38,406 nt of DNA. Origin: a virus. This document shows, in pieces, positions 14,449 through 38,406 of the stretch. Each line of letters begins with the position of its first letter. Within the stretch, counting starts at the first letter, position 1. A model generated the notes under the pieces. That model did not search any database. It was not told where the DNA came from and saw only the letters and a program-made list of their open reading frames with translations. The stretch lies in UHGV virus genome UHGV-0237655; one strand, 5' to 3'. A program made the translations under genes and the position numbers.

Positions 14449-14538
14449 ATGAGCGAACAGAACGAATTTGGCAGAGTATCCGCAGAGGAACTGGAAAAGG
14501 TATTTGAGACAGAAGAACAGGAGGAAGAGAAAGAATGA
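14449..14538 (+). CDS. 29-aa acidic mini-ORF coupled to the endolysin start
   Basis: AAGGAGGTGAGAAC then ATG. Encodes MSEQNEFGRVSAEELEKVFETEEQEEEKE. Its TGA overlaps the amidase ATG (ATGA). Confidence 0.3.
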   Translation: MSEQNEFGRVSAEELEKVFETEEQEEEKE

Positions 14539-15338
14539 AAATTGGCTTAAGGGGAGGACACTCCCCAAATTGTAAAGGTGCAATCGGTCTGATCGATGAG
14601 CAGGCAGAAGTGCGGAAGATCTACAATGAGCTTGTACCAATGCTACAGGCAGTCGGTCATACTGTGGTTGATTGTAATTCCAACGCATCCAATGCGTCTG
14701 GTGAACTGTCTGACGGCACAAATAAGGCGAATAGTGCCGGGTGCGATATTTACGTAACTTTGCACATGAATGCGGCAGGAGCGGCGTCAGCTGGCGGCAC
14801 AGAGGTGTGGTTATATGATGCATCCAATCCGACTATGAACATGATTGCAAGTAACATCTGCAAGAATTTTGAAGAAAAAGGATTTGTTAACCGCGGTGTT
14901 AAATATAGTTCCGGCTATCATGATCTGAATGCATCCAATATGCCCGGTATGATTGTGGAGACATTATTCTGCACCGGAACAGATGATGTAGCCAGATACC
15001 GGAGCTTAGGAGCAAAGGGAGTTGCAGAACTGATCGCAAAGGCGATCGACAGCAAAGCATCAACAGGAAGTGGACAGGGAAATAATCAGAATACAGGAGA
15101 TCAGGAAGGAGAAGAGACTATGCAGTGCATGTTTACAGTAGAAGGAAAAGGATGTGTTTATTGGATGCATGATGGAGTGGTTACAGCTTTAGCACACCCT
15201 GACGAGTTAAAAATCATTCAGCAAATTTATAAGGATAACTATGGACATGATATGCCATGTTACAGTTGGAGCAAGCCAGCGCCATGGCATATTAGGCTGA
15301 TGGAACCATTATATCGTGAACCCGTAAAATCTATTTAA
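14535..15338 (+). CDS. N-acetylmuramoyl-L-alanine amidase endolysin (Amidase_3 type) with C-terminal wall-binding-like region
   Basis: N-terminus MKIGLRGGHSPNCKGAIGLIDE...YVTLHMNA is typical of MurNAc-LAA catalytic domains. Directly follows the holin. Confidence 0.8.
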   Translation: MKIGLRGGHSPNCKGAIGLIDEQAEVRKIYNELVPMLQAVGHTVVDCNSNASNASGELSDGTNKANSAGCDIYVTLHMNAAGAASAGGTEVWLYDASNPTMNMIASNICKNFEEKGFVNRGVKYSSGYHDLNASNMPGMIVETLFCTGTDDVARYRSLGAKGVAELIAKAIDSKASTGSGQGNNQNTGDQEGEETMQCMFTVEGKGCVYWMHDGVVTALAHPDELKIIQQIYKDNYGHDMPCYSWSKPAPWHIRLMEPLYREPVKSI

Positions 15339-15349
15339 TAAAAATCCCC

Positions 15350-15378
15350 TCAGAGAGCTGATCTCCGAGGGGTGAATA
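15350..15378 (+). terminator. terminator after the endolysin gene
   Basis: CCCCTCAGAG...CTCCGAGGGG imperfect 10-bp stem, immediately after the endolysin stop. Confidence 0.4.
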
Positions 15379-15430
15379 TTGTATCATTTTCGTGTATATT
15401 TATAATATGTAAAAATATTATAGGTTACTG

Positions 15431-15504
15431 CTATATGGCGGCCCGGACGGGGAGCTCGCTGCATCGATGCGGTATTTATCTCAGCGGTACACCATGCCAT
15501 ATAA
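15431..15504. other. candidate attP region for the serine integrase
   Basis: 9-bp inverted arms CTATATGGC / GCCATATAA flank a GC-rich core (GGCGGCCCGGACGGGGAGCTCGCTGCATCGATGCGG) in otherwise AT-rich intergenic DNA. Located between endolysin and int, the canonical position. Confidence 0.35.
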
Positions 15505-15578
15505 AGAGGTGACAGCAACACTTACGGATATCGGCACGGAGGAATACGCTCGTAGAAGATGCAACTAATAAATATGCT

Positions 15579-15609
15579 CCGAAAGCACCGTCATTTCGGC
15601 ACTTTCGGG
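15579..15609 (-). terminator. hairpin at the integrase 3' end
   Basis: CCGAAAG / CTTTCGG stem spans the int stop codon. Followed on the minus strand by U-rich AGCAUAUUUAUUAG. Confidence 0.35.
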
Positions 15610-17123
15610 TACACATCGATTGTGAATTCAGAGTTTTTCTGGTTTTTCTTATTTCGTTTCGTCTTAGTCAGAACAATCCTGTCAATCAGCTGTCTCAAGG
15701 CGCTGTTCTTTTCCGAGACAGTCAGAGAGTCCCACTCACTCAATAAATTCTTGCACTTCGGCACAAAATTTTTCCGGTTTGCCTGCCTTGCGATTGTGGT
15801 ATGCAAATCTTCACGGGCAGCAGTGATGTTATTCATGCAGTCTCTGATCCGCTGCTCCAGAGCATTGGACCGTTCAAGGAAAATTTCTTTCGTGTAAATT
15901 CCCTGCTCTAAAAAATCGAATAAGGATTCTCGCTGTTTTAAAAGAGTCTGATGCTCTGTTTCAAAATTCGTGACGATCATTTCTTTTGCAGCAATGGCAG
16001 CAGCGTCTTCCTCATGAGTGTCGGTAAATTCATACTTAACGATGTAGTCTTTCAGCCATTCAAGCAGAGCTTCTTCCAGTTCATCAATCCGGATCCCGAC
16101 TGTGGAGCACTCTGTATACTGACAGATCAGCATATCATAGGGCGTTTTCGTTTGCGCTTTCTTACGGACCATAAGCCGATCGCATTGTGAGCATCTGACC
16201 AGACCTGCAAATAGATTTTGTATCGGTCTGTCGTTTCTGACTGGAGCAGAAAAACATCCTTTTGGTTGGTTCGCGCGTTTAAATAAGTCTGGGCTGATCC
16301 GTGGAGCCCATGCCGCATCTGAGAGGATGTAATCTGTGGCTTTTGGACGGGACTTTACTACGCGCCCATCTTTTACAGCTCTGACAGTCTTACGATGCCC
16401 CCAGCGGACTTTACCGATGTTTGCCGGATTCGAGATAATCCCTTTTAAAGTGGATGGAGTAAAAGGTTTGCCACTCCTTGCAAGGATTCCCATATTGGAC
16501 ATATAGGTACAGGCTTTCTGGTATCCGTACTGCTTATTTCCGCACAGATCATACATTAGATCAAGGACGGGTGCTTCTGTCTGATGTGGGGCGAGAGAGT
16601 AGTGTTTTCCATCCGGCGCAATGACGCGCTCCCATCCATAAGGGGCAACATTACCAACGTAATATCCGTCAGAACTGGAACGTTCCCTGCCACGCTGCAT
16701 TCGGCGCTTGATTGTGGCGTACTCCCGGCGGCTCATAAATAAACTGAACTCAAAGTACTCATTATCATACTCGTTTGCAGGATCGTAGGTTTTATTCGGT
16801 GTTACAATCCGGGTGTTGGAATAGAAAAATGCACGCTGCACACGCCCCTGATCGATCGTATCACCTCTGGCCAGACGATCTACGTCCATTACGAGGGCAC
16901 CATCCCACATACAGGCTTCCACCTCGGATAGGACTTGCGTCATGACTGGGCGGGCATCGATACTGTCTCCGGACACAACTTCCCGGTAAATCGCACCGAT
17001 CGGAAGAGAGAGAGTCTTTGCCAACTCTAACAGGGTAGTAATGTGGCGTTCCAGAACATCAATCCCTAGCGCTTCCAGTTCGGCGTCTTTTCTGGATTTT
17101 CTGGCGTAGATAAAATAAGACAT
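15591..17123 (-). CDS. int: large serine recombinase (integrase)
   Basis: 510 aa. N-terminal IYARKSRKD with catalytic-Ser motif Y-x-R-x-S, resolvase and recombinase domains, C-terminal zinc ribbon CSQCDRL...CQYTEC. AGGAG RBS. Confidence 0.85.
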   Translation of the reverse strand: MSYFIYARKSRKDAELEALGIDVLERHITTLLELAKTLSLPIGAIYREVVSGDSIDARPVMTQVLSEVEACMWDGALVMDVDRLARGDTIDQGRVQRAFFYSNTRIVTPNKTYDPANEYDNEYFEFSLFMSRREYATIKRRMQRGRERSSSDGYYVGNVAPYGWERVIAPDGKHYSLAPHQTEAPVLDLMYDLCGNKQYGYQKACTYMSNMGILARSGKPFTPSTLKGIISNPANIGKVRWGHRKTVRAVKDGRVVKSRPKATDYILSDAAWAPRISPDLFKRANQPKGCFSAPVRNDRPIQNLFAGLVRCSQCDRLMVRKKAQTKTPYDMLICQYTECSTVGIRIDELEEALLEWLKDYIVKYEFTDTHEEDAAAIAAKEMIVTNFETEHQTLLKQRESLFDFLEQGIYTKEIFLERSNALEQRIRDCMNNITAAREDLHTTIARQANRKNFVPKCKNLLSEWDSLTVSEKNSALRQLIDRIVLTKTKRNKKNQKNSEFTIDVYPKVPK

Positions 17124-17263
17124 TGTATCACACTCCTATGTTATTGTATTTAAATTTGGGTACAAAAATAACAGCCAGCGCAAAACATATGTTCCGCTTG
17201 CAAGCTGTTTCCGAAGATGATACAATATTCTTGGATTTTAATCGCATATCTTCGGATATGTAG

Positions 17264-17300
17264 ACCGTCTCAGTGCTGGTAACACTGGGGCGGTTTTTGT
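17264..17300 (+). terminator. plus-strand intrinsic terminator between lipoprotein and int genes
   Basis: 12-bp stem ACCGUCUCAGUG/CACUGGGGCGGU (two G-U pairs only on the plus-strand RNA), followed by TTTTTGTTTT. Confidence 0.4.
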
Positions 17301-17301
17301 T

Positions 17302-17901
17302 TTATTGCAATTTTATCTCCTGTTGTTGCGCGAATTTCTCTTCTCCTTCGTAAACAAGAGAATCAGTTATTCTGAATTTTACAGGACTCTCCGAATCTCT
17401 TAAATCAAACAGGAAGCCAACATTTAAAGTTGCTCCATCCATAATATCTAAAGTTGAATTTTTCAAAGACTCGTTTTTCTCAGAACCTCCCCACCCCTGC
17501 AATTCTACTCCATTTTGAAATGCCCTAGTAGAAAAAGCAGATGAAGAAGACATAGCGTTTGATGTTTTATTTGTGAAGTCGCAGTATACAACCAGTTGTT
17601 TTATTGGATTTCCTGCGTCATCGGTTGAATCTAATATTTCCAGTCCTGTGTATACTAAAGAGATGTCTTCGGTGTCTATATTGATAGAATCTACGATTTC
17701 GTACCCGTCCTCCATATTATCCGCTCCACCAGATGCTATCCATTCACTCTGTGACATGTTGCTATCATTTTCATTCAGCTCCTTTTCTGTAGCTTCTGTT
17801 TTCGCATTGTTCTCTTTTTTCAGTTCTTTATCTCCACCGCACGCTGTAATAGACAACGCCATAGTTCCAATCAATAACATTGTTACAATTTTCTTCTTCA
17901 T
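17302..17901 (-). CDS. secreted lipoprotein of the lysogeny module (candidate superinfection exclusion protein)
   Basis: Signal peptide with lipobox LSITAC, hydrophilic Ser/Asp-rich mature part. Sits between int and repressor and is co-oriented with int. Confidence 0.6.
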   Translation of the reverse strand: MKKKIVTMLLIGTMALSITACGGDKELKKENNAKTEATEKELNENDSNMSQSEWIASGGADNMEDGYEIVDSINIDTEDISLVYTGLEILDSTDDAGNPIKQLVVYCDFTNKTSNAMSSSSAFSTRAFQNGVELQGWGGSEKNESLKNSTLDIMDGATLNVGFLFDLRDSESPVKFRITDSLVYEGEEKFAQQQEIKLQ

Positions 17902-31498: not shown

Positions 31499-31695
31499 TT
31501 CGGATACAAAGTGTTGACTGCTGGACGGTCCTTAAATGATTAAGCGCGCGATCGGCTTTGCATCTGATTGGTACCAAAACGCAGATATCCGCAGATCTGC
31601 AAAACAAACAAAAATAGATTCAGCAATCTATATTTAGTGTAATCAGCGTACCTGAGTGCTGCGGATAGGGTAAAGGATGTCAACTGGCATCCTAC

Positions 31696-31768
31696 GGGTG
31701 TATAGCTCAGTTGGTAGAGCGATCGGCTGTTAACCGATGTGTCGCAGGTTCGAGTCCTGCTATACCCG
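31696..31768 (+). tRNA. tRNA-Asn (anticodon GTT)
   Basis: Manual cloverleaf: acceptor GGGTGTA/TATACCC (one G-U), D-arm GCTC/GAGC, anticodon stem ATCGG/CCGAT with loop CTGTTAA, 5-nt variable loop, T-arm GCAGG-TTCGAGT-CCTGC, discriminator G. No encoded CCA. Confidence 0.9.
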
Positions 31769-31772
31769 TTGT

Positions 31773-38107: not shown

Positions 38108-38406
38108 ATGGCATATACACCAACTACATGGAATAATGATGACGTTATTACAGCAGAGAAACTGAATAAGTTAGAGCAGGGCGTGAAGAATGAGCAGGTT
38201 GGACCGGCAGGACCGGCAGGACCAGCAGGAGCAGCAGGACCGGCAGGACCAGCAGGGGCAAAAGGCGAAAAAGGTGATCCAGGAGTAGCAGGACCGAAAG
38301 GAGACAAGGGAGATCCGGGCGCACAGGGACCTGCGGGACCAAGTTACACTCTTCCAGCAGCAAACAAGACAACGCTTGGCGGTGTGAAACAGATGGCTTT
38401 GATCGG
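38108..38406 (+). CDS. collagen-like repeat protein (putative capsid decoration/fibre), 5' part; continues at bases 1-94
   Basis: AGGAGG RBS. N-terminus [20 protein letters not shown] followed by (G-P-A)n and G-X-Y repeats. 9-bp tandem repeats GGACCGGCA x6 at 38201-38254. Confidence 0.6.

Follow-up and report, generated by a model that had tools for sequence, protein, structure and literature searches.

Host cotJC sequence bounded by the junctions of two serine integrases stands in the place of attP in a temperate phage genome

Introduction

What lies in the place of attP when the spacer beside a serine integrase gene of a temperate phage carries a GC-rich island that looks foreign to its surroundings? 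In the published model of large serine recombinases (LSRs; Bxb1, A118/LI, and phiC31), attP is a site of about 50 bp next to the int gene, with inverted outer arms and a very short core, and attB is shorter, its outer motif lying 5 bp nearer the centre (PMC3642061, PMC5499577). I analysed a stretch of 38,406 nucleotides (UHGV virus genome UHGV-0237655; hereafter the window, to which all coordinates refer unless a relative is named), in which such an island lies between an endolysin gene and an LSR gene. A preliminary description of this locus had proposed that positions 15400 to 15520 are the attP of the adjacent integrase. It was found that the GC island is a piece of the host spore-coat gene cotJC bounded by the junctions of two different integrases. 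It is spacer DNA between neighbouring prophages and not a working attP.

Results

The window and the genes around the spacer

The window is a complete temperate phage genome. Its two ends join in frame within a collagen-like ORF with a Gly-X-Y repeat (38157-38406 plus 1-92). It is 99.99% identical across 11.9 kb to the ENA contig ERZ27281601:k141_11057, a MEGAHIT contig assembled from short reads at k=141, whose terminal overlap is exact and 141 nt long. The exact overlap and the in-frame ends make the window a MEGAHIT cycle that closes at about 38.4 kb. Such closure in a de Bruijn graph is not proof of a free circular phage. The linearisation point of the window lies about 60 nt past the collagen-like repeat, and the source contig starts at window position 15211.

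The features around the spacer are listed in Table 1. The flanking genes are those named in the preliminary description, an Amidase_3 endolysin on one side and an LSR on the other. The two genes face each other across a spacer of 252 bp. The integrase of the window is hereafter called int_B, and the phages that carry it type B; an unrelated integrase, int_D, and the type-D phages are described below. An Rfam search of the whole window at the gathering threshold, and of 15250-15700 at E<=10, returned just the tRNA and two sub-threshold leader matches. Thus, the GC island is not a known RNA.

Some other traits of the region were noted. The hairpin past the endolysin gene is wholly inverted in the window (CCCCTCAGAGAGCTGATCTCCGAGGGG) relative to nearly all relatives (CCCCTCGGAGATCAGCTCTCTGAGGGG), one being the exact reverse complement of the other, and a MEGAHIT contig end lies inside this hairpin, at 15351. 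Many relatives (L005, L008, L017, L018, L033, L034, L055, L182, and L194) have an additional 59-aa ORF (MEYQIYESYDTFLLYQEF...) with its own promoter-like region in the interval between the endolysin gene and the att site, and the window lacks this ORF. Directly upstream of the integrase gene, both type-B and type-D phages have a gene for a DUF5067 protein (17302-17901 on the minus strand of the window; 1619-2149 in L088). The homology block common to distant int_B loci ends at the stop codon of this DUF5067 gene and its terminator (17262-17296). The window also has a tRNA-Asn (GTT) gene at 31695-31769, just upstream of the terminase region.

Table 1. Features of the endolysin-integrase spacer and its flanks in the window.
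Feature	Coordinates	Strand	Basis
Endolysin (N-acetylmuramoyl-L-alanine amidase), final gene of the late operon	14535-15338	+	Pfam Amidase_3, 1e-21
Terminator-like hairpin past the endolysin gene	15346-15372		Inverted repeat search
AT-rich phage left arm	15373-15436	+	Comparison with L088, L093
attR-type junction of the type-D integrase (P_D half-site, core, cotJC B' half)	15418-15463	+	Four-site comparison
Type-D outer arm TTATAGGTTACTGC	15418-15431
Identity block with attB, 15 bp	15433-15447
Captured host DNA, cotJC codons G30-E65 (the GC-rich island), 108 bp	15437-15544	+	Translation, Pfam
attL-type (B-O-P') site of int_B	15517-15568	+	Four-site alignment
cotJC-derived B half	15517-15542		Alignment
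Type-C LSR crossover position (GG), unoccupied in the window	15533-15534		attL_C/attR_C in relatives
P' half	15543-15568
Outer arm AAGATGCAACTAA of the P' half	15556-15568
Hairpin over the int 3' end	15579-15608		Inverted repeat I4
int_B, type-B large serine integrase, 510 aa	15591-17123	-	Pfam Resolvase + Recombinase + Zn_ribbon_recom

The island is real, and its symmetry is at the chance level

The letters quoted in the preliminary description are the sequence found at those positions, and the GC-rich island is real: its GC content is 0.72 at 15437-15475 and 0.565 at 15437-15544, against 0.31 in the left flank (15339-15436) and 0.42 in the whole window. The inverted arms and the palindrome, which had been put forward along with the island, fared worse. 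The arms, given as 9 bp in length, are perfect over 8 bp (15432-15439 and 15496-15503), GCCATATAA and CTATATGGC being non-complementary at the ninth position. This 8-bp pair is the shortest among eight inverted pairs within 351 bp, and 28% of the dinucleotide shuffles of the spacer contain a perfect inverted repeat at least 8 bp long whose gap is 100 or less. As for the 10-bp palindrome GCATCGATGC at 15461-15470, ten-bp palindromes number 29 in the window, where 35 are expected. The palindrome is not conserved, since relatives and intact host genes have GCATCAATGC or GCATCTATGC at a synonymous Ser codon, and neither is the left arm, which reads TATTTGGT in relatives. It was revealed that one arm lies inside a half-site of a different integrase, and that the coding sequence of cotJC accounts for the other arm and for the palindrome (MPYK, ASM). 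The arms and the palindrome, taken as the dyad of an att site, are thus at the chance level and variable among relatives.

The integrase of the window crosses over at the right edge of the island

Where, then, does int_B recombine? In IMG/VR, 55 loci have relatives of int_B. In the loci whose integrases are 95-99% identical to that of the window, the spacer between the lysin gene and the integrase gene has two forms. Form B has no island and carries TTAGTTGCATCTT-N26-AAGATGCAACTAA, which spans 52 bp and has outer arms that match perfectly over 13 bp. An LSR attP has this architecture, and the site, found in 16 loci, is called attP_B. Form A, which is the form of the window, has only the right half of attP_B in common with it. 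A search with the left arm recovered attP_B and also attR_B, in which the left arm is followed by ...GAAAGAA|CTGGCCCATATGGAAATG... and the rest of cotJC (ELAHMEMI...). The attR_B junction is present in seven loci, and attL_B, in which the 5' part of cotJC is joined to the P'_B arm and int, was found in L057, L035, L184, L001, and L002. The intact attB_B occurs in 14 loci, and among the contigs with an uninterrupted site B, none also has int_B.

When attP_B, attL_B, attR_B, and attB_B are aligned, GAA at 15542-15544 is their sole common sequence. The crossover of int_B lies at codons 64-65 of cotJC, which is the right edge of the island. The symmetric centre of attP_B falls on G|A, which points to GA at 15542-15543 as the central dinucleotide, with AA at 15543-15544 as the alternative. 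The outer-arm motif of attP_B best matches the B and B' halves when shifted inward by 5 bp (6/13 and 8/13, respectively; 5 or fewer at other shifts), which agrees with the prediction of the published LSR model.

In the window, the LSR gene adjoins the site, its stop codon lying 23 bp from the P' half, and the right half of the site is identical to the P' of attP_B. The P_B arm (TTAGTTGCATCTT...) was found nowhere in the window with up to 2 mismatches, so that of the two inverted P-type half-sites that make up an attP of about 50 bp, the right arm alone is there. Since the window keeps just the P' half, the site is of the attL type and not attP. This attL-type site has no true host-prophage boundary, because only 108 bp of host DNA precede it before phage DNA is met again.

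These results bear directly on the reading of 15400-15520 as the attP of the adjacent integrase, with the island as its core and the arms and the palindrome as its dyad. Two of its elements are sound: an integrase recombination site does lie in the spacer between lysin and int, and the island does match a host gene. The site itself, its coordinates, and its type are different. In integrated copies, the junctions of the integrase of the window map elsewhere, at 15542-15544, beyond the proposed span, an outcome of the kind that the preliminary description had named as a refutation. The site there is attL-type. The one junction that sits within the span (15418-15463) is that of an unrelated integrase, whose gene is absent from the window. 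Furthermore, the canonical attP of phages with a 95-99% identical int has no island at all, the symmetric elements are unconserved and at the chance level, and a P half-site of int_B is absent from the window. The island is host cotJC sequence, as the supposed link to a host gene would have it, and it is not an att core. The attP reading is therefore hardly tenable.

The homology break at 15436/15437 seen with L001 and L002 was at first taken for the int_B crossover, a reading dropped on the discovery of the canonical attP_B and attR_B. Cultured phages of R. gnavus (phiRg519T2 etc.) have the lysis genes in common with the window and a different integrase of 384 aa, and they are thus uninformative for the site. 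One locus, L070, has at about 2315-2334 on the minus strand a type-B P arm that continues from GAA into a sequence other than cotJC (GAA|CCCGAATTGATTGAAGAAAAATATC...). This junction may be a secondary attB or another rearrangement.

The island is a fragment of cotJC

The translation of the island is GGPDGELAASMRYLSQRYTMPYKEVTATLTDIGTEE, part of the product of cotJC, a Mn-catalase-family spore coat gene in the operon cotJA-cotJB-cotJC. The island fragment matches Pfam Mn_catalase at 1.4e-8, and the rebuilt gene does so at 4e-52. Two Lachnospiraceae MAGs have int_B homologues of 83-86% identity. In both, the similarity to the window ends at about 15437, and beyond this point lie cotJB and the 5' part of cotJC, which runs in frame into the island. 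In close relatives, L057 among them (98.9% identical to the window in the region near int), the cotJC of the host continues from its ATG straight through the island. Compared by eye, with the identity not computed, the island and the host part of L057 match at 108/108 positions; the computed match with the L191 allele is 81/108. When the flanks of attL_B and attR_B are joined, they give a 207-aa ORF that is exactly the CotJC of Mediterraneibacter gnavus. The insertion is thus within a sporulation gene, and the flanks rebuild an intact ORF. The intact cotJC of L186 and L187 is a divergent allele, and the exact allele was confirmed at the protein level. The 72-aa chimera encoded across attL_B (...GTEEYARRRCN) occurs as an identical protein on at least 1000 contigs of M. 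gnavus.

The same attL_B chimera has been annotated in M. gnavus ATCC 29149 as a 75-aa 'cotJC protein' (EDN76404.1, P0166) that ends with ...GTEEYARRRCN. Therefore, in this type strain, which was used for isolating the related phages, a type-B prophage occupies cotJC.

The left edge of the island is the junction of another integrase

An exact search of IMG/VR with the left arm of the window (GGTTACTGCTATATGGC) gave no match because of point differences, and a degenerate pattern then succeeded. The left arm (AATATTATAGGTTAYTGYTATWTGG) was found in IMG/VR in four contexts. In the first, the arm is followed by cotJC from codon 30 to the end without interruption (L076, L077, L078, L082, L087, L094, and L096). 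The second is the arrangement of the window (L054, L080, L083, L084, and L091). In the third, the arm is followed by cotJC up to codon 61-62 and then by the arm of a third element (L079, L085, L089, and L090). The fourth, in L088 and L093, is TTATAGGTTATTGC-N18-GCAGTAACCTATAA, a 46-bp site with 14-bp inverted arms that adjoins a gene for a 472-aa LSR. This is a second canonical attP, attP_D, and its LSR is int_D.

In local alignments, int_D and int_B are 21-28% identical. The outer arms of attP_D are near-perfect in L088 and L093, with one mismatch (GGTTATTGC vs GCAGTAACC), and the window's own left arm, TTATAGGTTACTGC, is the exact complement. The window sequence from 15373 to 15436 is nearly identical to that upstream of attP_D in L088 and L093 and unlike the left arm of type-B phages. 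The other three sites of the type-D system were also found: attL_D, in which the 5' part of cotJC is joined to ...GGCCC|GGATTGCAGTAACCTATAA and int_D, in L097 and L098; attR_D in L076, L077, and others; and attB_D in L057 and L191. The left edge of the island is an attR-type junction of an LSR unrelated to int_B, at codons 29-33 of cotJC. Its crossover is resolved to the 15-bp block of identity with attB, within which GG at 15440-15441 is the predicted central dinucleotide.

The P arm of this junction is thus the left arm of attP_D, and the host gene lies beyond it. Its cognate integrase is not on the same element. The P'_D arm is absent from the whole window, and the sole tblastn match of int_D in the window is weak (23%) and is int_B itself. 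Among the recombinases of the three types B, C, and D, the window has int_B only.

Host DNA beside an attL-type junction from which the P half has been lost recalls an aberrant excision of the lambda-gal type. The 108 bp would then have been gained, and the P half deleted, by illegitimate recombination between cotJC and the phage left arm, and a short microhomology (ATTT/TGG) does occur at the left junction. I considered this for the left junction until attP_D and attL_D were found, and it now seems extremely improbable. The left junction is the exact crossover of an independent LSR whose attP, attL, attR, and attB are all observed, and the left arm of the window is the P arm of the type-D system. 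A specialised transducing phage has an illegitimate junction away from att, and here both junctions are at LSR crossovers.

Tandem prophages in cotJC and the probable origin of a hybrid phage

How did the two junctions come to lie side by side in one genome? On the contig IMGVR_UViG_3300039359_000050 (54,460 bp), int_B at 15.0-16.6 kb is followed by the same spacer and then by a phage of 37.6 kb, which finishes with int_D where the contig stops. The remaining form-A contigs are 42, 46, and 66 kb in length, more than one genome. A long-read contig of 103 kb encodes the exact int_B protein twice. One copy lies beside a canonical attP_B. The second is followed in turn by attL_B, 12 bp of cotJC, attR_C, a 6-kb element with a 538-aa LSR, attL_C, a cotJC fragment, attR_D, and the lysin gene of the next phage. 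These contigs show that the spacer separates two tandem prophages within cotJC.

The type-D and type-B phages integrate about 100 bp apart in the cotJC of M. gnavus, at codons 29-33 and 64-65. With both sites occupied, the order is phage D lysin, attR_D, cotJC codons 30-65, attL_B, int_B, and phage B, an arrangement that the contigs show directly. Because the two prophages are homologous, recombination between them could release a unit-length hybrid with the spacer in the place of attP; alternatively, read-through packaging from the upstream prophage may account for the release. When the window is compared with the type-B phage of the 103-kb contig, the identity is 99.2% on the right side of the spacer and only 87-90% on the left, which is a recombinant pattern. 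Positions 15418-15568 are very probably a composite scar, made of an attR_D-type junction, 108 bp of cotJC, and an attL_B-type junction, in a phage that is a hybrid of two prophages. Such a hybrid most likely arose by recombination between the two prophages. The second breakpoint of this proposed recombination was not located. In L194, which is from another sample, a protein-identical endolysin gene lies next to a type-B arm. Module shuffling is thus frequent.

There may instead be no free hybrid. The assembler would then have passed through a tandem D+B double lysogen and closed the path wrongly, and the spacer would be purely chromosomal. The assembly was made from short reads at k=141, the two prophages have long homologous stretches, and all other spacer contigs of informative length are longer than one genome or demonstrably tandem. 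However, a tandem lysogen would give the assembly graph a branch beside lysin and another beside int, and contigs normally break at such points, whereas a clean cycle is seen here. It has an exact k-mer overlap and exactly unit length, and its ends close in frame. A mis-closed path is thus unlikely, though it deserves serious consideration. Among the contigs, none was found to have a single hybrid prophage bounded by attL_B on one side and by attR_D on the other.

Third and fourth integrase lineages in the same gene

The third element in cotJC, called type C, is an element of about 6 kb with an LSR of 538-550 aa, and it lies at codons 61-62 (7312-10419 in L079; 11534-19770 in L180). In L079, it also encodes a Viral_Rep/helicase-like protein. 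Its attL_C was found in L079, L085, L089, L090, and L180, and its attR_C in L016 and L180. No more than 9 bp separate the type-C and type-B crossovers, and the attB sites of the two integrases therefore overlap. The type-C element adjoins attL_B in L180 and L016, with just 12 bp of cotJC between them, so that one of the two integrases, B or C, must have acted on a half-altered site.

A fourth insertion site lies at about codon 137 (HEDLAAE|QKAR), in L061, L065 (4912-6480), L076, L077, and L087 (3501-5072). There are at least two variants of the insert there, each with an LSR of 522-523 aa that has a C-terminal DUF4368 domain. In total, four unrelated LSR lineages use four sites in one 620-bp gene.

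Predicted behaviour of the proposed hybrid

In Bxb1, attP and attB are the only pair of sites that synapse when the directionality factor is absent, and attL is unable to do so with attB (PMC3642061). As the window has lost the P half-site, Int_B at 15517-15568 should take the attL configuration. It would then recombine solely with an attR_B partner in the presence of a directionality factor, and not with attB. Judging from this comparison, the phage of the window should be unable to integrate via attP x attB. The routes that would remain are RecA-type recombination via the 108 bp of identity with cotJC and recombination with resident prophages.

It may be asked whether the cotJC fragment is kept for a function. 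It could serve as a RecA homology arm or, with most of the type-C attB inside it, as a portable landing pad. The 108/108 match with the host (by eye), the synonymous nature of the differences among spacer copies, and the type-C element that sits inside such a spacer in L180 are in keeping with this. However, synonymous-only variation is also predicted from host alleles if the spacers are repeatedly re-sampled from chromosomes, the fragment has no in-frame start codon before the M at 15467, and a single hybrid prophage flanked by attL_B and attR_D was not found. Retention for function is thus improbable.

Discussion

The insertion of LSR elements inside sporulation genes has precedents in SPbeta in spsM, skin in sigK, and vfbin in spoVFB, and here too an LSR insertion lies inside such a gene, with the exact ORF rebuilt from the flanks. 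In a part of the literature, cotJC is listed among the sporulation-gene targets of LSRs, with Abe et al. 2013 as the source (bioRxiv 10.1101/2021.11.22.469490). The present case differs from SPbeta, skin, and vfbin in that the host is a gut member of Lachnospiraceae, M. gnavus, and that four LSR lineages use four sites in a single gene. Unlike SPbeta and skin, the window has a composite of attL and attR and not attP. In the same way, it departs from the att layout of Bxb1, A118, and phiC31, having a recombinant attL form where attP is expected.

Hybrid phages that arise by recombination between co-resident prophages have been described in a spore-former for phi3Ts and SPbeta (bioRxiv 10.1101/2020.05.06.055103). 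The idea is the same, that two related LSR prophages give new unit-length phages, although in the present case the formation is deduced from the contigs. Here, the prophages are about 100 bp apart in one gene, and therefore the hybrid carries the host spacer and both hybrid att junctions. The gal and bio transducing phages of lambda are alike in that they carry host DNA from beside the integration site and have lost part of att. In contrast to them, the captured DNA in the window has precise site-specific ends and is only 108 bp in length, and no phage genes were lost.

Three points appear to be new. The first is a composite in the place of attP that consists of the attR of one LSR, a host fragment, and the attL of another. 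The second is that sites B and C, only 9 bp from each other, overlap. The third is that four LSR lineages, none related to another, target four sites within a single gene of 620 bp. In practice, those who wish to use this integrase for genome engineering or to predict the host target of this phage need the 52-bp attP of the relatives and codons 64-65 of cotJC, and not the GC island.

The proposed origin of the hybrid also gives a way in which serine-integrase phages may acquire host DNA with no aberrant excision, namely by the insertion of two phages side by side in one gene and their subsequent recombination. The cotJC gene of M. gnavus, a prominent gut species, is a hotspot for four unrelated LSR lineages. 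This hotspot and the annotation of attL chimeras as cotJC proteins bear on the calling of prophage boundaries, on spore-coat biology, and on a possible excision of these phages during sporulation. It is a doubtful speculation that cotJC serves as a docking strip, the hybrids without attP persisting via the 108-bp cotJC homology or the spacer acting as a portable attB for type-C elements. If this were true, four unrelated serine integrases would stack their elements in one 620-bp sporulation gene, and neighbours there would recombine to give new phages.
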